64,000 bases of DNA from an uncultured delta proteobacterium (GCA_963804165.1 CAWDPO010000046.1:32001-96000); one strand, 5' to 3'. Shown: positions 41,410-55,467, numbered from the stretch's first letter. The notes: generated from the sequence alone by a model not told the origin. Program-made: numbers and translations.

Positions 41410-41916
41410 GTCACCCATGTGTCCTCTTAATTAGTAAACCCAACTGCCGTAGTAAATTGTCGCTATCACGATCTCTGCAATCGGCATTCTTACCACCGAG
41501 GCACTGAGACAATCCGACACGATGAAGGTAGAAATCTCGATGCGTCGATCGTCTAGCCGTGGGTTCCCCAACGGGCGAAAAATCCGCGGTTCGCGTTTCT
41601 TATTGCTAGGGTTGGTGAAACCGTGTTAAGCGGCATGTGCCGCAATAGCATGAATTTGGGGTGCGGCTCTGATGAGCGAAACTCCCGATGTTTCAACTGA
41701 TCAACGGAACCATAGAATGCGCTGAGTGCAGGCACGAGATTCGCCACGGCGATGAATTCAATTGTCATTCCTGCGGGGCGAGTATCTGCGACAGTTGCCT
41801 CTTTTATCATGAAGATGGGTGCCTTTTGGCAATTCCAGGCGAAAAGAATTTTCATTGACTAGAAAAATGATTTTATCGGCTACTTGATAAAAGCAGGATT
41901 TCCCGCAGAGGAACAG

Positions 41917-42060
41917 GGCGGCGAAGCCGCAACCGAGACTCGGATTATCTCGCGCAAAGACGCAAAGGCCGCAAAGGTCGGAGAAAATGGGTCAAAATCA
42001 TTTTGTAAGAGTTTTTATCTTTCCCCTTCCAAACTTGGCGACTTTGCGCCTTGGCGGGAG
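41917..42060. repeat. CGCAAAG-periodic inverted repeat element
   Basis: TCTCGCGCAAAGACGCAAAGGCCGCAAAG ... CTTGGCGACTTTGCGCCTTGGCGGGA. The preceding GCGGCGAAGCCGCAAC resembles 24428-24443. Confidence 0.65.
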
Positions 42061-42131
42061 GAATTTCCGACTCCGAGTGCTTTCAGCCGTCCGACGTCGG
42101 ACCGTCACGATTCACGAGCACGTACACGGTC

Positions 42132-42905
42132 TTACTGCTTGCCTGCCTCCTCATTCAGATCGAACTCCGCGATAACCGGCGCATGATCACTCGTCCCCAC
42201 CTCGCGATAGGCGGCGCACCGGGCGGCTTTCACCGCCAAGGGTTGGCTCGCCAGGATGTAATCGATGCGCCAACCGATATTGCGCTCGCGCAACTTGCGC
42301 CAGGGCGCCCACCAGGTGAAAAGATTCTCATTGTCCGGGTCGAGCGCGCGGCCGACATCGACAAGTCCGCGCGCCAGGATGCGCTCGAAGATTTCTCTTT
42401 CCTCGGGGCGCTGTCCCACCACGTTGGGGTTGCGCTCTTTGGGATGCACGTCGCGTTCGCTGCGCGCGATATTGATGTCGCCGCACAAGACGACGCGCAT
42501 GCCGCCGGCGTGAGCTTCGCCGATGAACGCCTCCATCTGCTGCAAAAAGTCCATCTTCGCGGGAAAATCTTTGCCGCCGTTCGGCACATAGACTGAGGCG
42601 AAGAGAAGATCACCGACCTGCGCTGTCACGATACGAGTTTCGACGTCGAAGGTGGGATGGCGAAACAACGGCTCGTCGGCAAATGCGTCGCGCCGGATGT
42701 GGAGCCCCACACCCGAGTAGGCGCGCTCGCCGTGCCAGTAACAGCGATATCCCTGGAACTCGCAGAGCGCCGCCGGCACCTGGGCCACGGTCGATTTGAG
42801 CTCCTGCAGGCAGACCACGTCCGGCCGCTCGCGCTCGATCCATTCAAGAACCTGAGCCCCGCGCGCACGGATCCCGTTAACGTTCCAGGTGGCGATTTTC
42901 AGCAT
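42132..42905 (-). CDS. xth: Exodeoxyribonuclease III
   Basis: TWNVNGIR, LQELK, YSGVG, YVPNG, GDINIA, WRIDY, SDHAP. Confidence 0.95.
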   Translation of the reverse strand: MLKIATWNVNGIRARGAQVLEWIERERPDVVCLQELKSTVAQVPAALCEFQGYRCYWHGERAYSGVGLHIRRDAFADEPLFRHPTFDVETRIVTAQVGDLLFASVYVPNGGKDFPAKMDFLQQMEAFIGEAHAGGMRVVLCGDINIARSERDVHPKERNPNVVGQRPEEREIFERILARGLVDVGRALDPDNENLFTWWAPWRKLRERNIGWRIDYILASQPLAVKAARCAAYREVGTSDHAPVIAEFDLNEEAGKQ

Positions 42906-42980
42906 TTGGCAAAATTATAGAAAGAGACCAGGCGATGTTCAAACACGGGGGACGACTGAATGAAAGATTCGGATCGTTCA

Positions 42981-43088
42981 CCGCGGAGGTGCGGCGTGGT
43001 GCGCCGCCGTCGGTTTTGTCCGGCACGCGTGATTTACCCAGGTCTTGAACCGCCATCCATGTCGACACTCTTAATCAGGCGGCCAACT
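42981..43088 (-). repeat. Diverged copy of the Y1-transposase 3' end (direct repeat of 45188-45294)
   Basis: Encodes VGRLIKSVDMDGGSRPG* versus VSRLIKSIDKDGGSRPE*, plus about 55 nt of shared downstream sequence. Confidence 0.85.
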
Positions 43089-43250
43089 TTGTGTGCTAAC
43101 CTATCGGTCAACTGTAGCCGCCAAACCCTAAAGCCCAAGATGTTGTGCTTTGTGATAGGTTTTTGGAAAATCCATTTCACAAAATGAACGGAATGTTTCG
43201 CATCAATTGATAAAACCGACATGCCATAGAAAGTGGGAGACATACCAACC

Positions 43251-45107
43251 ATGAACTCAGCTGAAGGCGGCGGTGCGTTAGATGTGTCTATAGCAGCCGC
43301 GCAGTTTTTCGGCGCGAGCACGTGGATCACGCTGGGAGCAGCACTACTAGTGAGCACGGCCGCTTTCGTGGTCATGCGTCTCTACGTGCGAACGGTCTTC
43401 CGCGAGAGCCAGCGTAGCGCGTCACTTCCGCAAGCTGGCTCAGGTGTGGAGGACGGCGCTCGGCCGCCGCTACTATCGGCGCTCGGTCCTTTGGAAATCC
43501 AAACCGAGAAGCCTGGTGGGCCTGCCGGTCCACCGCCTGCGCGGTCGCCGACCTTCCAGCATGCCGAAACCGCTCTGCACCGTGCGGCGCGTTTCTATGC
43601 TCTCGGCGGCTCCATCCACGCTGCGACATCCGTGGGCTTGCTCTTCCTATTTGGGATCTATTCCCTCCCGTCCATATCATCCCGGTTGACGACGTTGGCG
43701 TGTTATGCGGCCGTGTTTTGGTCGTGGTCTTTCATCACGATGATCGCGCTCGCTCTGTTTTTGGGCCCGGACCGCCGCCTCCGTGGACTCCTTATCTTGG
43801 GGTACGTAGGCACGCTTCCAGCAATGGGCGTGCTACTGCAGCTCGCGGGCGCTCCAGCGCTTCCCCTGCCAGACGTCGGACTGATGCCGAAGGACCAGGC
43901 AGCTCTACTACTTTCGTTCGCCAGCGCGGTGACGGGGCAGCAGGTTACCGCTGAAGCAGTGACGTTCTCGCCACTCTCACAACCGATTCTATTCTGGAGC
44001 CTGAGCGCAGCCCCCGTGATAATTCCCTTTGTCGCCTTTAATCGATTTATTCGCGGGACTGTAGGACCGTTGTTTATCATCCTAGCGCTGATGATGGTTC
44101 TGTCGAGCTTTCTGATTATAGACCTGGTCCTCTACACATCTCCAGGCGTTTGGCTCGCGGGCCATATCAAGGGAATATTTGGTAGGTTTACCCATGGAGT
44201 TCTGATGGTCATCAGTCTCATGCTGTCGGCGGTCGTTGCTTGGTTCGGGCTGTTGTGGATCGCTCGCCGTTATCGCCGCATGCAGTTGAGCGATCAGACC
44301 TTCCTTTTGGATGCCCTGTGGCTCTCGGTCTCATTGTGCGTATCCGTCTATCTCCTAGGCAACAACGACCAATTCCGCTACTTGCTCGGATTACTGCCCT
44401 TTGCCCTTTACAAGATTACCGTCGGATATGGACTAAAGCGAATTGCGGCGCGTGCGGAACCCCTGCCGAAGGCGCGCCTGCTTTTTCTTCGCGTCTTCGG
44501 GTCACCGAGCCGATCCGAGAGGCTGTTCGACCTCCTCGCCGCGCGCTGGCGGTATGCGGGTAGTATTCAGCTTATCAGCGCTACGGACGTGGCCCGCGGT
44601 CGTTTTGAGCCCGACGAGTTCCTTGATTTTCTCAGCGGGCGGTTAGCCAGCGCCTACATCAGCACGGGCTCCGATCTCGACCGGCGTGTTGCAGGGCTCG
44701 ACGTTCGGCCCAACCCCGATGGGCGCTACCGTGTCAACGAATTCTTCTGCCGCGTCGATACGTGGCAGCAAACGGTGATAAGGCTGATGGCGCAGAGCGA
44801 TCTGGTGGCCATGGACCTGCGTGCTTTCACCTCCGAAAAGAAGGGTTGCATCTTCGAACTCGGCGCCCTGATCGATGAGGTGCCGCTGCACCGCGTAGTG
44901 CTGCTGATCGACCAAACCACCGACGAGCCGCTCTTGAGACGGACGCTCGCCGATCTGTGGCGAAGGATGAACCCTCAATCGCCCAACGCCTATGGCGGAA
45001 TCGCGCGCGTAAGGATGATCGATCTCGCCTGCGGCTATTCTGCCGCGGTACGTCGTCTCATGCAGCTTGGCGATGAGGTCATCGCATGCAACGGCATAGC
45101 GAACTAG
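43251..45107 (+). CDS. Multi-pass membrane protein with a C-terminal TIR-like Rossmann domain
   Basis: About ten hydrophobic segments, then LLFLRVF...DTWQQTVIRLMAQSDLVAMDL...GCIFEL...RVVLL. The gene call is solid; the domain call is inferred. Confidence 0.7.
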   Translation: MNSAEGGGALDVSIAAAQFFGASTWITLGAALLVSTAAFVVMRLYVRTVFRESQRSASLPQAGSGVEDGARPPLLSALGPLEIQTEKPGGPAGPPPARSPTFQHAETALHRAARFYALGGSIHAATSVGLLFLFGIYSLPSISSRLTTLACYAAVFWSWSFITMIALALFLGPDRRLRGLLILGYVGTLPAMGVLLQLAGAPALPLPDVGLMPKDQAALLLSFASAVTGQQVTAEAVTFSPLSQPILFWSLSAAPVIIPFVAFNRFIRGTVGPLFIILALMMVLSSFLIIDLVLYTSPGVWLAGHIKGIFGRFTHGVLMVISLMLSAVVAWFGLLWIARRYRRMQLSDQTFLLDALWLSVSLCVSVYLLGNNDQFRYLLGLLPFALYKITVGYGLKRIAARAEPLPKARLLFLRVFGSPSRSERLFDLLAARWRYAGSIQLISATDVARGRFEPDEFLDFLSGRLASAYISTGSDLDRRVAGLDVRPNPDGRYRVNEFFCRVDTWQQTVIRLMAQSDLVAMDLRAFTSEKKGCIFELGALIDEVPLHRVVLLIDQTTDEPLLRRTLADLWRRMNPQSPNAYGGIARVRMIDLACGYSAAVRRLMQLGDEVIACNGIAN

Positions 45108-45239
45108 GGTGATCCAGGCAGAAAGCCGTTTCAGAGCAGCGAACAGGGTCACCCATTAGCCGGCAGGTCAAGTAGGCACAGACCTTCCCGCGGAGGCGCG
45201 GCGTGGTGCGTCGCTGTCGCTTTTGTCGAAACGGGTGAT

Positions 45240-46112
45240 TTACTCAGGTCTTGAACCGCCGTCTTTGTCGATACTCTTGATCAGTCGGCTTACCGTCGAA
45301 TAGTGGAGCTTTAAATGGCGGGCGACTTCGATCTGACTGTAGCCGTGTTGGTCAACCGCATCTCGGATTGTTCGGTCCCGTGCCGTTTTCTTTTTCCCAC
45401 GCCCTTCAAATAGCTTCTCCAGACTGGGGCGATCGATAAGTCTTTGCCCCTTCGGTATCTCTCGGACATTCTGCTTGCTGGTTACATGGCCGCGGAGTGC
45501 ATCGGCGAATCCTTCCAACCCCAAAAGGCTCTGTGCCTCCAGATTTTCCCAGATGGTGGTGCCGTTGACTCCTTCCGTTACGTAGCTCCGGTATTTCTCC
45601 TGAGCCGGGCCTCGCCTCTGGCCAAAATGGCTGAGGATTTCTTCGACCGTTAGACAACGGGGAGACGCGGTTAGTCCGCCGGTCGCGCGGTAGCTGCTCC
45701 ACGCCCACTCTCTGGGATGCTTGACGGCTTTGGCCCTTACCGGATTGAGCACCACGTAGCGGCAGACTTCGAGAAAGTGGCTTTCTTTCTGAACCAAGAT
45801 CCCTTTAAACCGTCCCTGAAATAGATGCCCGACTCGATGGTGGCGTCGATTGAATGCTTGAGTGTAAACGCCATTCAGCTGGCGCATTCCCTTGGATAAG
45901 TTCCCATCCGGTGTCTCGATCACCAGATGGTAGTGATTGTTCATCAAACAGTAAGCGTGGCAGAGCCAGTGAAAGCGCTCAGTGACTCGGAAAAGGGTAG
46001 CGAGAAACAATTCGCGGTCGGTATCGTCCCTAAATATCGCTTTTCGCTCGTTACCTCGAGAAGTGACGTGGTACAGCGCTCCGTCGTATTCGATCCGTAG
46101 TGGGCGAGCCAT
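45240..46112 (-). CDS. HUH Y1 tyrosine transposase (RAYT/TIRYT type) with C-terminal HTH
   Basis: MARPLR, YHVTSRGN, HUH motif CLMNNHYHL, GHLFQGRF, RYVVLNPVRA (catalytic Tyr), WSSY; HTH YSQIEVARHLKLHYSTVSR. Confidence 0.95.
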   Translation of the reverse strand: MARPLRIEYDGALYHVTSRGNERKAIFRDDTDRELFLATLFRVTERFHWLCHAYCLMNNHYHLVIETPDGNLSKGMRQLNGVYTQAFNRRHHRVGHLFQGRFKGILVQKESHFLEVCRYVVLNPVRAKAVKHPREWAWSSYRATGGLTASPRCLTVEEILSHFGQRRGPAQEKYRSYVTEGVNGTTIWENLEAQSLLGLEGFADALRGHVTSKQNVREIPKGQRLIDRPSLEKLFEGRGKKKTARDRTIRDAVDQHGYSQIEVARHLKLHYSTVSRLIKSIDKDGGSRPE

Positions 46113-46120
46113 GGATGGGA

Positions 46121-46167
46121 AACATAGGAGGAACAAGCAAAATTGTCAAGAGTAAAGACCTGACCCC
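46121..46167 (-). promoter_or_regulatory. Terminal motif GGGGTCAGGTCT with adjoining sigma-70 promoter of the transposase (near-leaderless)
   Basis: Minus strand GGGGTCAGGTCTTTACTC-TTGACA-17 bp-TATGTT-8 nt-ATG; no Shine-Dalgarno. Confidence 0.75.
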
Positions 46168-46188
46168 TTTGACCCCTTTGATTTTTTT

Positions 46189-46257
46189 GTAGGGGCGGGC
46201 CATAGCTGCAGACTTTAGGCGATGACTTGCCAATTGTCAAGATTAAAGACCTGACCC
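46189..46257 (-). mobile_element. Truncated 5' end of a second related Y1 element
   Basis: Minus strand GGGTCAGGTCTTTAATC-TTGACA-17 bp-TAAAGT-8 nt-ATG GCC CGC CCC (MARP); similarity then stops. Confidence 0.8.
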
Positions 46258-46446
46258 TAAGACGTTTGACCCTAAGACGTTCTCTCTCTAAGACGTTTGC
46301 AATTGTGATTTCTCGTGGTTACACGTGCTACGAGAATCCCGAATCCTCGTGTCGTTTTGGTTGGTTTGGATTGTGATTTGACTCACTCTGGAGTTGCGGG
46401 CTATGCCTCGGGGATTGCACAGCCCCGAGGCATAGATGGGCATTGG

Positions 46447-47586
46447 TTAACGAAGATTCTGGAAACCGAGGATTTGACTCATGATGTTGTCCAAGATCGA
46501 ATAATTTCCGTCATCGTTGCGGCCATATCGATAGCGGCTGTTGTATCCATCCTCATAACCGCGTCGGAAACCCTCACGGAAGTAGTGGTTGTAATCGGTC
46601 CGGTTTACGTAATAGCCGTTATAACCGTAGTTTGCGTCCCGATAGGCATAAGAGTCTTTGTAGCCGCCACCGCGCCAACGGTCGTCGCGGTCTGCCTTGC
46701 CGGCGCGGAAGCCTTCTTCATATCCATATCTCACCGCCTGGCGTAGCGTCCTCGCACCATACTCATTGGTTTGGTAGTACTTGCCGCCACGGTTGTAACG
46801 ATAAATCGGCGCCGAGTAGAAATATGGGTCATTATCGTAGTCGAATCGATGGTCCCGTAAATAGATCTGCTGCTGCCGTAGGCGCGCGAGATACTCTTCT
46901 TGAAAGCGATACTGGGCCATGCGCTTTTGTTGCTGTAGCCGGGCTGCATGCTCTCGTGCGAGACGTTCCTCCTGTTCCAGATGTTGCCGGTATTGCGCTA
47001 CCAGTTGTTGCTGCTCTCTTATCCGCTGTTGTTGCTGCTGTTGGGACAGACGTTGTTGCTGTCTCTGTTGCTGAATCTGATCTTGCCTCTGTTGCTGCGC
47101 CCGTTCCTGCTGGATTTGCTGGGACTGGCGCTCAATCCGTTCTTGTTGCTGCTGTTGGCGCGCGCGTAGTTCCTTCTGGTACTGCTCCGATTTTCGCTGC
47201 GAGCGCTCGAGCTGCTGCTGGTCTTGCTTCTGCTTTTGCTCTTGCTGCTTCTGTTCCTGCTGAACGCGATGTTCCTGCTGCTTCTGCTCTTGCTCTGCTT
47301 TTCGTTGCGTGCGCTCGAGCTGCTGCTGGTCTTGCTTCTGCTTTTGCTCTTGCTGCTTCTGTTCCTGCTGAACGCGATGTTCCTGCTGCTTCTGCTCTTG
47401 CTCTGCTTTTCGCTGCGTGCGCTCGAGCTGCTGCTGATCTTTTCGCTGTTGCTGCTTCTCATCCTTTGCGCGCTTTTGTTCTTCCTGCACGCCTTGTTGC
47501 CCTTCGGCCGCTAAGACGAGCCCCGGCAACGCCAGGGTGCCGACTACAAGCGCAATCACTATCCGATCTACGATATCACTTTTCAT
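46447..47586 (-). CDS. Secreted Gln-rich protein with Tyr/Gly/Arg-rich C-terminal domain
   Basis: RBS AGGAGGAG; signal peptide; poly-Q/E/K coil; C-terminal GYEEGFRAG...FREGFRRGYEDGY. Confidence 0.88.
   Translation of the reverse strand: MKSDIVDRIVIALVVGTLALPGLVLAAEGQQGVQEEQKRAKDEKQQQRKDQQQLERTQRKAEQEQKQQEHRVQQEQKQQEQKQKQDQQQLERTQRKAEQEQKQQEHRVQQEQKQQEQKQKQDQQQLERSQRKSEQYQKELRARQQQQQERIERQSQQIQQERAQQQRQDQIQQQRQQQRLSQQQQQQRIREQQQLVAQYRQHLEQEERLAREHAARLQQQKRMAQYRFQEEYLARLRQQQIYLRDHRFDYDNDPYFYSAPIYRYNRGGKYYQTNEYGARTLRQAVRYGYEEGFRAGKADRDDRWRGGGYKDSYAYRDANYGYNGYYVNRTDYNHYFREGFRRGYEDGYNSRYRYGRNDDGNYSILDNIMSQILGFQNLR
47203..47436. repeat. 108-bp intragenic tandem repeat (about 2.2 copies)
   Basis: Near-identical units encoding QQQLERTQRKAEQEQKQQEHRVQQEQKQQEQKQKQD. 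Confidence 0.85.
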
Positions 47587-48336
47587 GGTTCTCCTCCTGA
47601 ACATTCGGGCACATCCATTGAGATCAAGCGTAATCGTGAACACTTTCACGAGGCGCTAACCTCGGTGCCGTATTTTGTTTCGCTACATCTTCTTAGACGG
47701 GTTAGCGTCGATTATCTTGCAATCTGGGCAAAGAATGACGGCCGACTAAACTCTCATGAGGCATTGCCGCCTCAACGAATCAGAGTTCGGCGAAAGTTCC
47801 GATTGATGTTCCGCTTTTGGGAAACAGAGCGACTTCAACCCATTGAAACAACTCGATTACCGGCGCTTGCTGGCTCGGTGCGATATTGTAACGCGCTTCG
47901 CCAAAAAGCGAGTTGACATAACCCAATCGAACGAATAGTGGTCCCACCCGCCAAACTCAGCAGAGTTGTGGACCGCTGCCGGTGCTACAGACATTTCGGG
48001 CAAAGAGCCGTTCTCCCGGCGTGGCGGGTTGCGGAAAGGAACGGGTGATTGTCCCAGGGCCGGGGCGTCGGAACTGCTTGATGGCGGTTCGACGCACCGG
48101 CTTCCGATTCTTCAGTGCCATCGCGCATTTTTGTTTCTGGCAAAGCACTCGCAGAGTGGTGAGATTTTTCACGTTCCCAGGCATCTTTACTGGAATGCAA
48201 GACAGATGTCTTGCCGAACCATATCGGCGAAGGCCGCGTACCAAGGCGAGGGCACGAATTCCGTAAACCTGCTTCTGGGATGACCGTTTTAAACCCTAAT
48301 TGCCTACTGAGTGCGTTCCGAGCTATTGATGGGGTC

Positions 48337-49067
48337 ATGCCCCAGGTTGGTTTCGATTACTTACGACAATTCGAGGTGAGCGATTCTTCGCTTGTGCTTC
48401 GGCGCTATATGAGCCACTGCAAATTCAGCCAAACTGTCAAGTCGGGCACTCTCTACTTTGCAGCTGCATCTTCTTTTTCGGACGAGCTAGAAGGCCATCA
48501 TACCAACCTTGACAATGATCTATCTGATGCCCAATTGGCGCGATGGGGGCTCGACCTCAAAGCGCGGACAGTCGCATCGGAAAGCAGGGCCATCGTTGCA
48601 AAACATAACCAACAAGCAGTTGTAATTAGTTGCTGGACCGGTGGAATCACGAGAGTCTCCGGATGTGGTCGGAGTATGCACAAGGCGCGGAAGCTGTTGC
48701 GATCGAGACAACCGTCGGCGACTTGAGGCGCGCTCTAGGACCCGATTTTCTGATCGTTTGTGTTCGCTATCTTGATTTTTTGAAGCAATCGGTACCAAAG
48801 GAACATTCGCTTTTACCGTTCTTTTTCAAGCGCCGTTGTTATGAATGGGAACAGGAAGTCCGTGTTATTGGCGAAATGGAGGTGGGGAAGCGTGTTGGAA
48901 GCCCACGCCTGGTGCCTATAGATCTACACGCCACGCTAGGGAGAATTGTAATTTCTCCATTTGCATCAGCCGATTACTCCCAGACCGTTGGGTCACTGCT
49001 TAATGCACGATCAGTCTCGTTGCCAGTGCACGATTCTACGCTTCGGAGAGATTTACCTGTAAAATAG
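48337..49067 (+). CDS. DUF2971-like protein (frameshift near 48640)
   Basis: LRRYMS..KF...LYF...FSDELEG, then ISCW/HESLRMWSEYA...VAIET, FFKRRCYEWEQEVR, IVISP across two ORFs. Confidence 0.7.
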
Positions 49068-49264
49068 CGCTCACGAGGTTTTACGATATAAGTCGAAGCG
49101 AGAGCGAATCCAACTTCCAGTCGTGGCTACCGAATCAACCGCGTAGTAGGAATGTGCTGCGAAGAGGATCCACAATCCTCATGTCGGCTGGGTTCTATCC
49201 TCCTGTTCACAGGCACCCTTTCTACCGCCACGCCATGTTAGGGGACCAGAGAGCAGGGCCGTAA

Positions 49265-50158
49265 TCAGTGCTTCACCTTCACCGCCAGAGCGGCGATCCC
49301 GTCCAACTCTGCTAAGGTTTGCGGTGACAGTGTCAACTGACCGGCGGCCATGTTCTCGCGGAGGTGGGCGACCGATGACGTCCCGGGGATCAACAGGATG
49401 TTGGACGACCGGTGCAGCAGCCACGCCAGCGCGACCTGCATCGGCGTGGCCCCGAGTCGGCCCGCAGCGTCCGACAGAGTCGACGACTGCAGCGGCGTAA
49501 ACCCACCGAGCGGGAAGAAGGGCACGTATGCGATGCCCTGCCGGACCAAGTGGTCGATCAGGGCGTCGTCCTGGCGATAGACCACGTTGTAGTTGTTCTG
49601 CACGCACACAATGTCGGTGATCGCCTGCGCCTCTGCTACCTGGGCGGCCGTGACGTTGCTCAGACCGATATGACGGATCAGCCCCTTGCGTCGGAGGTCA
49701 GCCAGCACCGTCACCTGCTCGGCGATGGACCCCTCCTCGAGGCCGTGGCCCGAACCCATCACGCGGTAGTTGACGATGTCGAGCGCGTCCAGGCCCAGGT
49801 TACGGAGGTTGTCATGGACACCGGCGGTCAGGTCTTCGGGCGAGATGGCCAGCTGCCACGACTTGTCGGGCGGCCGGCGGGCTCCGAGCTTGGTGACGAT
49901 CACCAACTCTGTCGGGTAGGGATGCAGAGCCTGCCGAATTATCTGGTTAGTGACGTGCGGGCCATAGAAGTCAGACGTGTCGATATGGTTCACGCCAGCC
50001 GCGACAGCCTCGCGGAGGACCGCGACGGCACCGTCCGGGTCGTTGGGCGGTCCCCACACGCCGGGGCCGGCCAACTGCATCGCGCCGTACCCTATCCGTT
50101 GGACCGTCAATGACGTGCCGGGAAACGTGAACTGGCCGCCGAGCTTGGATTCGCTCAT
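49265..50158 (-). CDS. Aldo/keto reductase
   Basis: IGYGAMQL, IDTSDFYG, IVTKLG, HIGLSNV, VQNNYN, IPGTSS..HLREN; RBS AAGGAG. Confidence 0.93.
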   Translation of the reverse strand: MSESKLGGQFTFPGTSLTVQRIGYGAMQLAGPGVWGPPNDPDGAVAVLREAVAAGVNHIDTSDFYGPHVTNQIIRQALHPYPTELVIVTKLGARRPPDKSWQLAISPEDLTAGVHDNLRNLGLDALDIVNYRVMGSGHGLEEGSIAEQVTVLADLRRKGLIRHIGLSNVTAAQVAEAQAITDIVCVQNNYNVVYRQDDALIDHLVRQGIAYVPFFPLGGFTPLQSSTLSDAAGRLGATPMQVALAWLLHRSSNILLIPGTSSVAHLRENMAAGQLTLSPQTLAELDGIAALAVKVKH

Positions 50159-50367
50159 TGTGTTGCTCCTTTCCAGTGCTGACAGGAGCAAGCAAACGCG
50201 ATACGTTACAGAAGTCAAATACTGCAACTAATAATGTGAAACCAAAGCTGGCTGGAACTCTTCGGTAAGCTGATTTGTTGTATTGCGTCGCAGTACTCGG
50301 CATGAGAATCTGCAATCCTCATGTCCTTTGTTCATTCGAAGCGGGCGAGCGAGCGTGATACTCGGAG

Positions 50368-50610
50368 TTAACCCTTCTCGTCTTTCAGTACTTCGCGGAT
50401 ATAGTCACGGCTTTTCCATTCAGGTTCGGGAGGTGTGTAATCGCGCCGCGGGGAATAGACAGACTCGTCGATGAACTCCATCTTTGGAATATAGCGTGGG
50501 CAGTTATAGAAGATGTACTCGGCGGTCACACGCATGAGCCGTTTTGCACCAGGCAGTTCGGCGATCGCCTCTCGGCTCTCGTCGAGGTACGCTTTGCCCG
50601 TGATCCGTCT
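50368..50610 (-). pseudogene. 3' fragment of a pyridoxamine 5'-phosphate oxidase-like (split-barrel flavoprotein) gene
   Basis: RITGKA...IFYNCPRYIPKM...PEPEWK is a C-terminal pattern of this family; the N-terminal half is absent. Confidence 0.65.
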
Positions 50611-50848
50611 TAAGGCAGTGGGACTTGATAGATCTAACACTGCCTGTCCTCGACCAGATAAGTATTTCTTATATCTCTGGACTTTGTTTCGTTCAGGTTA
50701 ACTCTGGCGCGGTGGCTGGAGATGCGTCGACGTGAAACCAAAAAAAGTAGACAGGTTTACAGATGGGATTGAGGCTTGCGGTTCGAAGGCGGTTGATCAA
50801 TACATCCCTGTTGTGGTCCAATCTGAGCTCTTCAGCCGGTTTGGAAAT

Positions 50849-51993
50849 TCACCGTTTTTGAGACCTCTCGTGCAATCCCGGAATGCTTGCTTGACCGCTT
50901 CCGTCAATCAGAGCACAAGCAATTAGTCGCATCGAATGACTGCTGAACGGATTGACGCGCATTGAATGACTGTGAGCGGGTTGAGGGACTCGACAAAATT
51001 GTAACGAATTTCTCGGATTGCGGGATCGTTGGCCGGCGGGGGATTAACGTAACTCAGGAGCAGACGTGCGTAGGCCAAGATCTCGCCATGTTCGAAGATT
51101 CGATCGATTTTTAATCCCTTTCGCGTTCGGAGTTCGAACCTTGCTCTTTACGGAATACCATCCGGTAACTGGCGAAGGGTCGAAGGCGTATACATTTGAC
51201 ACGCGCGGGAGAGTACTGCCGTCGGACGATTGAATTTCTGGAAGCGCGTATGCGAGATGCTGGGCGAGCCCGCCACCCAATGAATGGCCGGTTGTGATGA
51301 TGCGGACATTCTTGTAGTGGTCTCCTCCATTTTCGATTCGGGTCTTTAGATTCTCCAGCACTTCCTTTCCTGTGTCCTGGGCGACGACGGTATATTGGTC
51401 CTTGTACGTCGGCAGAAACCGTAGCAGCCAGCTAAACCAACGGAAGTTTGACATCCAGTCGCTCCAGCTGAAGAATTCGGTTCCACGAAAGACGACAGCT
51501 ACTAACGGAGGAGGGCCGGTCTTTTCCCAAACTTCCATATAGAGTCCAACGTCGCGGGCTTTGTCGCGCAATGGTTCGGAAGGGAAATTCTTCCACATTT
51601 CCCAGCCGTACAGTGGAAGCTTCCCTTCGGGCGGGCAAGTCGCTGAGTAGGCTTCTAACTTTTCGGCGCTTCGCAAGGACATGGTGTCCGATGCGCGCTC
51701 ACTGGTTCTAGGAGTCGGCACGCTCCAACCGTCCGTGTAAACGTTTTCACTGAGAACCGCGTATTCCCATAGTTCTTTGGCCGATTCAGAGATGCTCACG
51801 GCTGGGTTATAGGTTCTATTTCCCGGTTCGCGTATGAGAACTGTTTTCGGGTCTTGGGACATGGCGGCGCATCCTGAAATTAATATTTGAATTGACAACA
51901 GGAAGATAAGGGATTCAGCCGATTTGCTTTCGCACTCGTCCTGTCTTCGAAGTAAAAGTTAGCACTCCGGGTTTTTCGATTACCCCTGTTCAT
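50849..51993 (-). CDS. Class-3 lipase / alpha-beta hydrolase, probable lipoprotein (about three apparent frameshifts)
   Basis: ILISGC lipobox-like; VVFRGT...DWMSN; TGHSLGGGLA; FDPSP; alternate frames continue IDRIFEHGEILA and SHSMR. Ends approximate. Confidence 0.7.
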
Positions 51994-52005
51994 ATAGCAG
52001 ACGCT

Positions 52006-52803
52006 TCAGACCGCCACCCCAGGCAGCTTAAACTTTCCGAGTGCCGCCAAGTCTGCAGCTTCGGCAGGGCGGAATTCCCAGTGCCAAGGTTCCTTATTCA
52101 CGGTCCGGATGAAACCAAACTCTGGTCCATGAACTTTGAGCCAATCGTAAACGGGATTTCCGTCAAAGCCGCCCACGTCCAGGTCAAAAGCAGTTCCGTT
52201 CTGATGATTCGAGCGCCCGGGTTCCGCCGCCAGCGCAAACTTTTTTGGATTGGAGTTAAAGAGGCTAAACAAGACAACTTGCTCCGGGAACGAGCGAAAC
52301 CCACTTCGTATAGAGATCGTAATACCGTCCTTCGCCGCGGCGCTCAACATTTCCAGATAAGGTTCTACGTTGTCTTCGGTGATCCTTTCGGTTTCGTTGT
52401 GACTGCCGACAATTTCGACGAGAGTTGCCTGTCCTACGAATCGGCCGTTTTGCCAAAGCGCGTTCGGACCCTTTCGATCATCATCGATGGGCTTAAGTCG
52501 CCCGATCGTCTCATTGAGAAACTTGCTTTCAAGGTTATCTGCGGATGTCCAACCGATGGTTGCGACTTCATCGTCGGTCGATTCCGTCAGGGCAAAAGTG
52601 AGTTTTGTGTCGATCGATTTTGCGTTGGTGATTCGAACTTGCGTTCCTTGTGGGATGATCTTTGGATCGCCAATCTTTCTCCCTGGAGGGAGTGTGTCAG
52701 AGGGGCCGTAGACAACATATTTGAGCAAGTTTCCAGACTGCCGAATGCGAGCTTCCGGATCTCTTACTGAAAATGTTTTGTTGAGATAGCTTCTTATGGG
52801 CAT
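52006..52803 (-). CDS. M15B (VanY-like) Zn D,D-peptidase with N-terminal SH3-like region
   Basis: SGFRS..EQ, PGRSNHQNGTAFD, EPWHW; N-terminal IPQGTQVRI...IGWTSADNL. Confidence 0.88.
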   Translation of the reverse strand: MPIRSYLNKTFSVRDPEARIRQSGNLLKYVVYGPSDTLPPGRKIGDPKIIPQGTQVRITNAKSIDTKLTFALTESTDDEVATIGWTSADNLESKFLNETIGRLKPIDDDRKGPNALWQNGRFVGQATLVEIVGSHNETERITEDNVEPYLEMLSAAAKDGITISIRSGFRSFPEQVVLFSLFNSNPKKFALAAEPGRSNHQNGTAFDLDVGGFDGNPVYDWLKVHGPEFGFIRTVNKEPWHWEFRPAEAADLAALGKFKLPGVAV

Positions 52804-52994
52804 GATTTAAACTCCGGGACCTGAACTACTTTAGCCGTAGGTCCCATCGGAAGAAAATAGGGATTTTTGTTTTGGGTGTCGATTTTGTCGCCCGGATTGG
52901 CGGCCAGGTCGACTTTGTTCGACTTGACAATCGCGCATGCCTGAGAAATTAATGATAGCGCAAGCACGAAGATGTAGTCGAGCCACTTGAGCAA
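52794..52994 (-). CDS. Small putative lipoprotein or gene fragment
   Basis: Hydrophobic N-terminus ending SQAC; overlaps the M15 gene start. Confidence 0.35.
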   Translation of the reverse strand: MLKWLDYIFVLALSLISQACAIVKSNKVDLAANPGDKIDTQNKNPYFLPMGPTAKVVQVPEFKSCP

Positions 52995-53436
52995 GTAAGA
53001 TTTTTCATTTCTGCCTCACTTTACGATCAGCCTCAAAGCTTAGCACGACGTCAACGCTTACATTCGCTTTCTCGAATCGATTACTTTGCTCTGCATTTAT
53101 CATTCCCGATTTTTGGGACGCCCGTGTGGACCTCGATATGAGTCGGCCGCGGATGTTAAAAACTCCGGTCGTGGTTGCTCCAATGCATGATTCGTCCGAC
53201 ACTGGACTATAGTTTTCTCATATTTGTCGATCGTGTATCGTTTGCGAGACGACAGAGCCGGACTTGGACTCAGCCTCTGGCGGGTACATAAGGGCTCGTC
53301 CGCCCCATAGATCATCGCTGGACGCCAGCCAAAGTTTCCTCGGAATCTGAATCGAGCCGCGCAACCCTCGTTTACAACACGTGTATCCAAAAGTTGCAGG
53401 AGTGAGTACGTTCAATCGCTGATTAAGGCCGCGGCC

Positions 53437-53545
53437 AGTTCAAAACGTTCAAGCCGTTTGATCCCGCCGGGGCCAGTTCAAAGGTTCAAGGTTCGAATGT
53501 TCAACGCCTTCGGCCGTTCAAAGTTCAAGGTTCAAACGTTCAAGG
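53437..53545. repeat. Degenerate GTTCAA-based tandem repeat at the island's right boundary
   Basis: Roughly ten GTTCAA/GTTCGA units, with GGCCAGTTCAAA occurring twice. Confidence 0.8.
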
Positions 53546-53726
53546 ACGGACGGGGGAACTGCGAATAGCGTCTGAAACCTTTAGGCCGGTCACAGCATCC
53601 CGCTCAGCTCTTCGCGGGCATTGCTCGACTGCTCCTGGCCGCGATCGTTCTTTGTCGAATTGAGCCAAGCGGAGATTTCCGAATCCCGGGATCGGCTTGA
53701 GATGGCAGCTTGGAGTTATACACTGA

Positions 53727-55467
53727 ATGAGGTATGCGATCAGTGGAACTGCAGGAAACCAGGCAGTGACGAATAGGTTCGAGATTGCCGCGGAGCTGCG
53801 GGCGATGGCTCGGCTGCTCACGATCAAGGGCGCTAATCCCTTCAAGGCGCAAGCCTATGTGCGAGCGGCGAGCGCGCTGGAAAATCTCGACGGCGATCTC
53901 GATGCGCTGGTCAAAACAGGACGGCTGAAAGAAATCCCCGGTGTCGGCAACGCGCTGGCGACGACCATCGAGGAGATTTACCGCACCGGCGAATGTTGGA
54001 TGCTCCAGCAACTCCGCCAGGAGTTGCCGCCCGGGGCCGTCGAGCTCAGCGAAGTGCCGGGCTTGAACCTAAAAAAGATCATCGCTCTCAACGAGGCATT
54101 GCACATTGAAAACATTGGTGATCTCAAGGCGGCATGCCAGCAAGGCTTAGTCAGCAAGGTTAAAGGCTTTGGACTCAAGTCTCAGGCGAAGCTGCTCGCC
54201 GATATCGAAAAGCTCGGAATTCACAAAGAAGACGGCTCTCTGCTGCTTCCTCATGCCCGCGAACAAGCGGAAAAAATGCTCACGCACCTGCGGATGTGCC
54301 CGGAGCTAATCCGAGCGGAGATCGCGGGAGCGCTGCGGCGGCACAAGGAAATCGTCGAGCAGATTGTGATCGTGGCCGCCAGCGATCTGCCGCGTGCGGT
54401 GCTCGACCAGTTTTTGCGCTTTCCCGCGCTCGCCCGAACTGCTGAGCTTGAAGAGAATCGATGTCTTGGATTCCTTGCCGGCGGCATTCGAGCGGAGCTT
54501 ACCGTCGCTGACGCTGGATGAGTTCGTCGCTACGCTTCATGCGCGGACCGGCGCGCCAAGCCATATCGCGAAACTTCAAACCATCGCGCGCGCGAAGGGG
54601 ATGACTTTGCTCCCCGAAGCGCCGAGCCCAGGGCTCAAGAGCGAAAGCGAAATTTATCAGCACCTAGGGCTTGAGCATATTCCGCCGGAGCTCCGTGAAG
54701 ACGAGGGCGAAGTCGAAGCCGCCATGGCTGGTACTCTGCCGCAACCGGTAGAACTGGAAGATATTCGCGGCATGACGCACTGTCATACGGTTTATTCCGA
54801 TGGCCGGAACAGCATCGAAGAGATGGCGCTGGCGGCCCAAGCGATGGGCATGCGTTATCTCACGATCACCGATCATTCGCCGAGCGCTTATTACGCCCGC
54901 GGCGTCACCATCGATCGGTTGCGCGCCCAATGGGATGAGATCGCGCGGGTGCAAGAGCGGGTTGAAATAAAACTTCTCAAAGGAACCGAATCAGACATTC
55001 TCGAAGACGGCTCGCTCGACTATCCCGATGCTTATCTGGAGCAATTCGACATCATCATCGCGAGCATCCATTCGCGTTATAAGATGGATTCCGATCAGAT
55101 GACCCGCCGGCTGTTGCGCGCGCTCCAACTGCCGTATTTCAAAATCTGGGGGCATCCGCTCGGCAGATTAATTCAATCGCGCCCGCCTTTTGCTTGTCGC
55201 ATGGAGGAAGTGCTGGACGCGGTCGCGGCGTCCCGATGCGCGATCGAAGTCAATGGCGATCCGCACCGTCTCGACCTGGAGCCGCGCTGGATCCGCGCGG
55301 CGCGCGAGCGCGGTATCAAGTTCATCGTTTCTACGGATGCTCATTCCACCGGCGCACTGGAAAATCTCGCCTACGGCGTCTCCACGGCGCGGCGCGGCTG
55401 GCTCACCCGTGGCGAAGTTCTAAACACGCTCGATACCGAATATTTCATGAAGGCGGTTCGTCCGTGA
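53727..55467 (+). CDS. polX: PolX-PHP family DNA repair protein with degenerate polymerase site (frameshift near 54515)
   Basis: NPFKAQAY..AA, HhH motifs IPGVG, VPGL, VKGFG; IPPELRE; PHP motifs HCHTVYSDG, TDH, GTE, SIH, GHP, STDAH. Confidence 0.92.

Follow-up and report, generated by a model that had tools for sequence, protein, structure and literature searches.

We analysed a 64,000-nt stretch of DNA from an uncultured delta proteobacterium (GCA_963804165.1 CAWDPO010000046.1:32001-96000), called the window below, in which an intact element (E2) with a Y1 HUH transposase gene of the TIRYT type lies near two orphan element ends of its own kind, together with a membrane-protein gene on the opposite strand (the cargo) and the xth gene. 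A first-pass annotation had taken this arrangement for nested elements that form a candidate gene-capture unit. Coordinates are positions in the 64,000-nt stretch; direct reading covered 42700-46600 and was accompanied by a listing of open reading frames (ORFs). The genome is a 7.5-Mb draft in 46 contigs, 81% complete and with 5% contamination.

Features of the locus

Read along the minus strand, the locus runs from a repeat array and the 5' stub through an A7 run with 9-nt units into E2, then through a 50-bp repeat, the cargo, a spacer and the 3' stub (of a sister element, E1) to xth. Its features are the following.

46258-46300, minus strand: direct-repeat ('stutter') array outside the 5' orphan; unit AACGTCTTAGGGTCA twice and a third, partial unit, the 15-nt periodicity being exact to GGGTCA/GGTCTT (the slash marks the boundary)
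46189-46257, minus strand: 5' orphan; repeat GGGTCAGGTCTT at 46246-46257, promoter TTGACA-17-TAAAGT at 46240-46212, ATG and four codons at 46203-46189
46167-46188, minus strand: junction stretch; A7 run, then the 9-nt unit TCAAAGGGG twice, directly outside E2
45188-46166, minus strand: intact TIRYT-type element E2, 979 bp; 5' repeat at 46155-46166, promoter TTGACA-17-TATGTT at 46149-46121
Within E2, minus strand, from sequence reading: Y1 gene 45240-46112, interrupted 3' repeat 45233-45252, 52-nt tail 45188-45239
45198-45224, plus strand: terminator-like hairpin and T run in the E2 tail, on the strand opposite to the transposase gene and facing the cargo gene
45146-45195, no strand assigned: outer 50 bp of an insertion sequence (IS) of the IS110 family; inner side cut at CCGCGGAG, whose 8 bases are common to the tail end
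43195-45128, plus strand: imported gene cassette; ORF 43233-45107 encodes 624 aa, among them about 8 membrane helices and, C-terminally, a 225-aa domain
43089-43194, no strand assigned: spacer of 106 nt that separates the 3' orphan from the cargo cassette; also found in contigs from runs X1-X3
42981-43088, minus strand: 3' orphan E1; last 17 codons, degenerate repeat and tail of an old resident sister element
42132-42905, minus strand: xth (exodeoxyribonuclease III family; Exo_endo_phos E 2.4e-30), promoter TTGAAC-17-TATAAT at 42942-42914; conserved left flank

The first pass had overlooked the 50-bp IS110 end at 45146-45195, the repeat arrays at 46167-46188 and 46258-46300, and the interruption of the 3' repeat.

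The intact element E2

The E2 gene encodes 290 aa and, judged by its sequence, belongs to the TIRYT-type, RAYT-like HUH/Y1 genes. The protein matches Pfam Y1_Tnp (E 1.6e-11) and scores 89.4 bits with NCBIfam REP_Tyr_transpos (cut-off 80), as against 13.9 bits with transpos_IS200 (cut-off 55). H60-Y-H62, Y119 (in RYVVLNPV), N123 and P124 are invariant across an alignment of 11 relatives. A profile of the transposase matches E. coli TnpAREP 4er8_A (E 0.0027), with the HUH and Y..NP motifs aligned to HMH and YIYINPV, while a search of PDB with the single sequence gave no match. About 150 residues follow the Y1 domain; here HTH_38 scores 19.3 bits, below its cut-off of 27, and a conserved ...HYSTVSRL... 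block fits a putative helix-turn-helix. In the paralog on C39, Bac_DnaA_C reaches 28.1, below its cut-off of 31.5.

The ratio of nonsynonymous to synonymous substitution rates (dN/dS) of the E2 gene is 0.09, 0.08 and 0.09 against loci L048, L051 and L049; with values of 0.08-0.09 the gene has been kept by selection, and it is intact and under purifying selection.

At the 5' end of E2 the 12-bp repeat GGGTCAGGTCTT is fused to the element's own -35 box; within it lies GGGGTCAG, which fits GGGGWSAS. The 3' inverted repeat is interrupted, reading AAGACCTGA-GTAAATC-ACCC. Folding of both ends and both tails gave z-scores of -1.06 to +0.61, hence no significant hairpins. The complete TIRYT-like element of the first pass, with a full transposase, a tail to 45188 and ends of the GGGGWSAS type, is borne out by the family scores and by GGGGTCAG.

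A terminator-like hairpin with a T run occurs on the plus strand in both tails (42991-43017 and 45198-45224), with one stem position G-T versus G-C. The one in the E2 tail would end the cargo transcript.

The E2 protein has 23 matches in the source genome, all but itself at ≤54% identity; E2 occurs there only once, as does the composite of ends, E2 and cargo, which speaks against recent copying. Of 41 related genomes, 35 have a match to the protein.

The 3' orphan and the xth junction

Positions 42981-43088 align with 45188-45289 at 85.4% identity over 103 nt (E 7e-25). The 3' orphan encodes KVGRLIKSVDMDGGSRPG before its stop codon, and the intact gene ends in VSRLIKSIDKDGGSRPE and stop. At an orthologous locus in another species of the genus, G043:C59, the junction GGATTGTTCA/CCGCGGAGG is that of the window, at the same base beside xth. 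The G043 element keeps residues 127-290, or 164 codons, against 17 codons in the window, and is 87.5% identical in nt to E2, 86.7% to L048 and 81.7% to L051. Because G043 shares both the element and the junction, the 3' stub is what survives here of a long-resident element, E1, that has been trimmed independently in two species. This upholds the earlier call of a 3' orphan with about 17 codons at 43088-42981 and its origin in an older resident element. The 9 kb examined at the G043 locus contain no cargo, and the upstream DNA there is unrelated and hydrolase-like.

Homology of G001, G043, G044 and G045 to the xth flank extends to 42980-42983. Past the xth promoter G001, G044 and G045 each carry different DNA, so that no empty site can be reconstructed; when their flanks were compared with the DNA right of the 5' orphan and with each other, 114-170 of 200 shuffles scored equally well. 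We compared ten xth orthologs (70-90% aa) with their flanks, and added a DNA search of the whole genus and five further loci. The ten loci have no common right flank, none has the window's 43-62 kb genes beside xth, and at five of them the upstream gene is an ortholog of C12:7067-8149. One genome in the set, G005, is unpublished; it supplies L002 (an example of the 3' repeat), L014 (a row of alignment A3) and L024 (an xth locus), none of them essential.

The distance from xth to the polX block, which starts at window position 53696, is 10.7 kb in the window and 3.1 kb in G045. Since the two lie so close in G045, 42984-53695 is a lineage-specific mosaic. The nested unit does sit at the left edge of a mosaic island, as the first pass had it; that island measures 10.7 kb.

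Short repeats rich in TTGAAC/GTTCAA occur in several intergenic regions of the genus, including the ancestral spacer upstream of xth. Such sites were seen upstream of xth in L023, L024 and L031 and at C12:8150-8300, C34:126850-126920 and C34:131170-131290.

The 5' orphan

On the minus strand the 5' orphan consists of GGGTCAGGTCTT, TTGACA-17-TAAAGT, 8 nt and then ATGGCCCGCCCCTAC. Positions 46232-46257 equal 46141-46166 at 25 of 26 bases (E 0.003), a span that covers the 5' repeat and the -35 box; the promoters of the orphan and of E2 have identical geometry, and the orphan's start region ATGGCCCGCCC-CTAC matches the E2 start ATGGCTCGCCCACTAC. The 5' orphan proposed at 46257-46189 is therefore real, and by these alignments (E 0.003 and 7e-25) both orphan ends are true relatives of the intact element.

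The 5' stub has ~73% identity to the 5' end of E2 in a gapped global alignment. Its matches at aligned positions number 55/70 to L053 and 52-54 (of 70-71) to other lineages, while L048, L051 and L091 share 62-66 of 70-72 aligned 5' positions with E2 (L051: 62/72). Because the E1 body in G043 is nearer to E2 than L051 is, the 5' stub is more distant from E2 than expected. Decay of a dead copy could account for part of this extra distance. The view that the orphans necessarily come from different elements was dropped: an ungapped count of 14/32 in the spacer had overstated a divergence that the gapped alignment puts at ~73% identity.

There is a real chance, if somewhat less than an even one, that both orphans are halves of E1, E2 having inserted at the fifth codon and later events (IS110, cargo, deletion) having replaced codons 6-273. 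This account involves no mobility of the whole unit; it is compatible with the explanation that we favour below and differs from it only in the origin of the 5' stub. Collinearity and orientation fit it, E1 is a genuine old resident, and the stub's repeat and -35 box agree with E2 at 25 of 26 bases. Yet the E1 body in G043 is 87.5% identical to E2 and L051 81.7%, whereas at the 5' end the stub stands at ~73% and L051 at 62/72; moreover, the best match of the stub is L053 (55/70), whose protein is only 79% identical to that of E2, and neither L048 nor run X1 (below) has the stub beside E2.

The cargo gene

The cargo protein of 624 aa, whose gene the first pass had correctly recorded as a membrane-protein gene on the opposite strand (ORF 43233-45107), has 8 hydrophobic segments in residues 32-375, followed by the 225-aa C-terminal domain. 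It has no family in Pfam, NCBIfam or PADLOC and nothing firm in a PDB profile search, and ESM Atlas returned only unnamed clusters. Weak Pfam matches across 16 family members, to SRP54 (4/16), Nuc_deoxyrib_tr (2/16) and Pycsar TIR (1/16), are leads only. The C-terminal domain has 2176 representative relatives at E ≤1e-3 and 696 at 1e-30, mostly proteins of 550-600 aa with the same layout; longer forms (~920-990 aa) have weak TPR matches only, in a sample of 25.

A scan of one genome per species found nine full-length homologs at 53-87% aa identity, the five closest at 80-92% nt. They come from metagenome-assembled genomes whose records label them Blastocatellia, Chthoniobacterales, Verrucomicrobiae, delta- and beta-proteobacteria and Acidobacteriota. 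Homology is limited to 43195-45128; the flanks differ everywhere and have no DNA in common with the source genome. Neighbouring genes are unrelated, one locus lying between IS5-like DDE transposases, and neither a Y1 gene nor the motif GGTCAGGTCT was found at any of ten cargo loci (up to 4 kb per side, less at contig ends). The synonymous distance (dS) to the closest homolog is 0.19 and dN/dS is 0.26-0.45. The 30 other genomes of the genus have at most partial paralogs, at 28-45% identity (in 18 of 24 and in 4 of 5 more), and a DNA search of G020, G042 and G043 for the cargo found none. The GC content of the gene (0.59, and 0.68 at third codon positions, against 0.56 for the genome) is not diagnostic.

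As homology is confined to the cassette, in unrelated contexts that lack Y1 ends, the cargo moves horizontally as a lone gene; the window copy was acquired in this way, as a single gene from distant bacteria.

The IS110-family scar

Positions 45146-45195 are 100% identical to C28:26429-26478 and C26:26736-26785. Full copies of this IS110-family element are ~1565 bp long and 91% alike, and those on C28 and C26 match DEDD_Tnp_IS110 (PF01548; E 2e-12 and 2.7e-13) and Transposase_20 (PF02371; E 1.1e-16). All other copies continue past CCGCGGAG as AAGAATTTC, so the window copy has been cut off where the tail of E2 begins. An element of this family once inserted just past the cargo gene and has left its outer 50 bp.

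The same IS110 element abuts a Y1 N-terminal fragment on C26 and lies 220 bp upstream of a Y1 paralog on C39, and its 50-bp end was seen near a Y1 gene at 5 of 80 metagenome loci (L056, L059, L077, L087 and L093). Both full copies are split into two ORFs. Its sites are C28:24914-26478, C26:25221-26786, C26:7982-8025, C26:28647-28713 and C39:55555-55605. We suspect that the IS110-family element may target TIRYT ends.

Populations

Parts of the stretch are held by 20 public runs from 14 studies, and four of these (X1-X4, from four studies) were compared as contigs. Contigs bridge xth, the E1 stub and the region upstream of the cargo in X1 (42799-43200), X2 (42712-43154) and X3 (42921-43223). X2 (45166-46173), X3 and X4 contain E2 together with its tail and some of the scar; a contig of X1 departs from the window at 46168 into a third sequence. 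The L048 contig (1294 nt; 96% nt and 98% aa identity) corresponds to 46173 to 45042, from E2 and its tail across the IS110 scar into the 3' end of the cargo; the 163 nt at its start bear no relation to the 5' stub and contain three 17-nt stutter units. Since the bridging contigs agree while the 5' flanks of L048 and X1 differ, the right-hand arrangement is common and the DNA at the 5' edge of E2 turns over. The spacer at 43089-43194 has an 11-nt insertion at 43153 in runs X1 and X3; it had no match in the genome or at the cargo loci.

In the contigs of the four runs, which are short and drop rare forms, we saw no joints that would mark excised or circular forms. At ~10 positions the 3' end of L048 agrees with the window's E1 stub against the window's E2, and several of these letters are the same in X2-X4. 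This sharing suggests exchange between the two 108-nt repeats, or else local divergence.

That E2 simply inserted into the IS110 element was considered and rejected. The flank in X1 is weakly like the IS110 interior (12 of 13 bases at the expected place), with 10 of 500 shuffles equal within the first 200 nt and 29 of 500 over the whole element; the L048 flank is unlike it, 156-163 of 500 shuffles being as good.

The first-pass proposal was that the orphans are the ends of one older element, whose interior was replaced by a sister element plus cargo, and that such elements target their own kind and form mobile, cargo-carrying composites. We regard this as very unlikely. Its attractions are that the orphans are collinear and correctly ordered, that elements of the family cluster (below), that a full copy and a 3'-end copy in direct orientation (the 108-nt repeats) bracket the cargo, and that the flank at the 5' edge of E2 differs among all three data sets, as expected of a mobile end. 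But the composite is single-copy in the genome, and the cargo stands without Y1 ends in 9/9 other genomes, within the 4 kb or less per side covered. The right-hand xth junction is the same in the window, G043 and X1-X3 and only the left flank varies, and hence the unit did not move as a whole; L048 and X1 have other DNA at the 5' edge of E2 and neither has the 5' orphan. The IS110 scar lies inside the supposed unit and separates the cargo from E2. The 5' orphan, moreover, is about equally far from all lineages (52-55 of 70-71), whereas members of the E2 clade share 62-66 with E2. Neither the gene-capture unit nor its movement as a composite is upheld by these data.

A capture confined to the 3' ends is, in our estimate, unlikely, though less so. 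On this account a circle or fragment with the cargo and an E-type 3' end entered at the end of the resident tail near xth, either by recombination between the 108-nt 3' ends or by action of the Y1 enzyme at CCGCGGAG, and left a cassette between direct 3'-end repeats. CCTCCGCGG indeed stands immediately before the segment from 45187 to 42981 and again at its end, CCGCGGAG occupies the corresponding point of the IS110 consensus, and the ~10 positions at which L048 follows the orphan and not E2, several of them repeated in X2-X4, suggest repeat exchange. G043, however, shows that the element on the xth side is E1 (~87% to E2) and not E2; the four runs contain no joints or excised forms, though contigs drop rare forms; the 8-base identity may be element sequence plus microhomology at a deletion; and the native flanks in G044 (CCGCTGAGC) and G045 (CCGGGATCG) are only loosely like the motif.

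The 5' orphan is known only from the source assembly, and none of the contig pieces listed from the four runs lies over 46174-46255, which is no evidence of absence. This gap in coverage, the other DNA at that edge in L048 and X1, and the draft state of the genome (46 contigs, 81% complete, 5% contamination) would all suit an assembly error at the 46188/46189 junction between the 5' orphan and E2, made through their shared 26-nt repeat. Such an error is nevertheless hard to credit: a repeat of 26 nt is below usual assembler word sizes, the contig is 420 kb long, and tandem 5' ends recur at L093, L055 and G044:C19 (36 nt apart).

Family architecture and stutter duplications

The source genome has four exact copies of the 12-mer repeat (two in the window and two on C34); across the genus, 23 of 31 genomes contain it, with 57 occurrences in total, where the reversed control has 4. 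Many of the genus 12-mers are solitary and have no gene; they include one 196-bp inverted pair and some tandem ends. A perfect terminal repeat pair stands 934 bp apart in G008:C7. The C34 Y1 paralog is preceded, 3.3 kb upstream, by a solitary 5' repeat of like orientation at C34:126925-126955, which matches 130247-130277 at 87% over 31 nt; both C34 repeat sites are flanked by TTGAAC-rich repeats.

Architecture was read in metagenome loci, taken as the best 80 of 549 relatives, with the genus loci added. The 5' end is near-constant in the family: it reads GGGTCA/GGTCTTTACTCTTGACA, with the repeat fused to the -35 box, and 66 such ends were recognised. The 3' repeat AAGACCTGACCC was recognisable at 39 of 68 loci and not at 29. 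A second GGTCA lies ≤34 nt upstream at 22/66 5' ends (reversed control 1/66), and a second TGACC lies downstream at 10/39 3' ends (control 0/39).

At 20 of 65 5' ends, exact tandem duplications with units of 6-33 nt and unrelated sequences extend as far as the repeat. In 9 of these 20 the periodicity breaks off precisely at GGGTCA/GGTCTT, and in 18 it does so within -6 to +2 of that boundary. At the 3' ends duplications were found at 12 of 38, and 9 of these 12 begin at -1 to +5. These stutter duplications include both window arrays (46167-46188 and 46258-46300) and those at L048, L053, L056, L080, L091, L092, L115, L121 and others; because some rows are close kin (L061 and L062), not all are independent events. 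The pattern suggests a footprint left when DNA is cut mid-repeat and rejoined, and possibly a natural map of cut sites.

More than one match was found at 9 of the 80 metagenome loci, three of them being frameshifts in one gene. The other six (L068, L069, L070, L073, L080 and L082) have separate fragments or paralogs within ~3 kb, L068 and L070 being one locus in two samples; thus the elements do cluster with their own kind, and nests are common. In L068 a convergent 422-aa gene lies between an intact gene and an internally deleted remnant. Clusters of Y1 genes also occur in G015 and on C34.

A stronger role for the ends would make them live recombination sites that are cut and rejoined mid-repeat, with stutter and neighbour turnover, that occasionally trap genes between a full copy and a 3'-end copy at CCGCGGAG, and that allow the segment from E2 to E1 to be moved by IS91-like read-through. 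We consider this improbable.

Interpretation

The locus is probably, though far from certainly, a decaying nest of TIRYT-type elements in the hyper-variable xth-polX spacer and not a gene-capture vehicle. The sister copy E1 stood flush against the xth promoter before the source species and G043 split, and has since been trimmed independently in each. Successive insertions and deletions with breakpoints at element ends (46167 ± 1, 45188-45195 and 42981) may have produced the present order of 5' stub, E2, IS110 scar, cargo, E1 stub and xth. More tentatively, the Y1 enzyme may nick single-stranded DNA mid-repeat (GGGTCA^GGTCTT and AAGACC^TGACCC) and rejoin it, which would leave the stutter duplications and would make the ends hot spots for turnover of neighbouring DNA; as tentatively, the putative C-terminal helix-turn-helix would bind the promoter-overlapping repeat, with self-regulation as the result.

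Several points weigh against this reading. Breakpoints exactly on element ends are also expected from composite or one-ended transposition. Both 3' ends finish with CCGCGGAG(G) and the IS110 element has the same 8 bases where it is cut, which could mean site-specific insertion and not random deletion. The orphans are collinear, and their order is what an insertion into a single element would give. The L048 contig stops short of the right end of its locus, so the whole unit may have a second location there. Replication slippage at a protein-bound site could yield the stutter pattern instead. Biochemical data for any TIRYT are absent from the portions of PMC3733652 and PMC6006769 covered here, and the history rests on 31 genus genomes, many incomplete, and on short contigs.

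Other features of the region

An Rfam scan of 41500-48000 found no family, and a promoter scan of the region gave 7 promoter-like sites against 1.5 ± 1.3 in shuffles. A 70-bp repeat at 46300-46369 has copies on C30 (three), C21, C22 and C23 at 82-97% identity; in the public runs, too, it occurs in several copies, and loose ends are seen on either side of it, at 46316-46318 and 46353-46354. Beyond it, a 400-aa ORF without a family (46447-47649; extreme AT skew of -0.74 in 47000-47499) is 78% identical in nt to a paralog at C45:89181-90460, and the homologs of this ORF in G002 and G014 sit in a neighbourhood like that of C45. The polX-like gene (HHH_8/HHH_5, then DNA_pol_B_thumb and PHP) consists of two overlapping ORFs, 53727-54521 and 54394-55467, maybe through a frameshift or a wrong start call. 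A repeat of ~2.03 kb is present five times at 97-99.9% identity (C46:412780-414805, C3:318328-320353, C2:244232-246244, C6:77240-79241 and C28) and is probably an active insertion sequence of another family.

Relation to known systems

Elements of the IS200/IS605 group (IS608, ISDra2) use a Y1 HUH enzyme and insert beside a short specific sequence, with no target duplication expected. E2 shares the class of enzyme, and the CCGCGGAG common to two 3' junctions would fit sequence-specific insertion; however, the ends in the window have no subterminal hairpins, the IS200 model scores 13.9 against a cut-off of 55, and there are no identical copies. The enzymes of IS91, ISCR and Helitron elements have two tyrosines or a helicase and act by rolling-circle replication. 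The sequence of full element, foreign DNA and second 3' end is the layout for one-ended read-through of their kind, but in the present case populations agree in the right junction, and the unit has no second copy.

The nearest described class is that of TIRYTs or TIRtrons (Di Nocera et al. 2013, PMC3733652), equated with TnpA-Y1 subclass 2.1 (Quentin et al. 2018, PMC6006769); for these and the following papers we refer to the portions of the text covered here. E2 resembles the TIRYTs of PMC3733652 in its RAYT-like Y1 protein with a putative helix-turn-helix-like C-terminal extension (a trait of the class, of the type Bac_DnaA_C, HTH_23 or HTH_28), in short terminal inverted repeats of the GGGGWSAS type (here GGGGTCAG) instead of REP hairpins, in a 3' repeat that overlaps the gene end, in repeats that also occur alone or grouped, and in several diverged copies per genome. 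It differs in the interruption of its 3' repeat and in the lineage-specific tail of 52 nt behind it. Neither the stutter duplications, with their fixed inner edge, nor the fusion of repeat and -35 box is mentioned in those portions of PMC3733652 and PMC6006769, although Figure 9 of the 2013 paper and the supplements may show them.

RAYT or TnpAREP proteins with their REP-BIME sequences are described from E. coli (PDB 4ER8; PMC3333891, PMC3479197, PMC8266576). E2 shares with RAYTs the HUH-Y1 fold family, with aligned HUH and Y..NP motifs, as well as the usual absence of multiplication into identical copies and a purifying selection like that on a host gene (Bertels et al. 2017, PMC5581495). Unlike RAYTs, it has ends without REP hairpins or significant folding and a much longer protein, and the source genome has >20 diverged paralogs where 1-2 copies are typical (PMC5581495). 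ISPpu9 of Pseudomonas putida, an IS110/IS1111-family element, inserts into REP-like repeats (PMC8450116), and the IS110-family element seen here lies repeatedly at or near Y1 elements (in the window, on C26 and C39, and at 5/80 metagenome loci). The window, in contrast, holds only a 50-bp scar, and targeting of TIRYT ends is a suspicion.

Significance

The cargo belongs to an unannotated family of membrane proteins of ~600 aa with >2000 representative clusters, and one member has crossed, as a bare gene, between genomes whose labels name different phyla. TIRYTs form a very large branch of HUH/Y1 enzymes, which may still move DNA. Gene capture is not seen at this locus, which therefore does not belong among the evidence for it. 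What the locus offers is a dated natural series, in which one element stands at the same junction in two species, truncated differently, and the DNA at the 5' edge of its sister turns over among close populations. The family-wide footprint that ends at GGGTCA/GGTCTT predicts the cut site of the enzyme.

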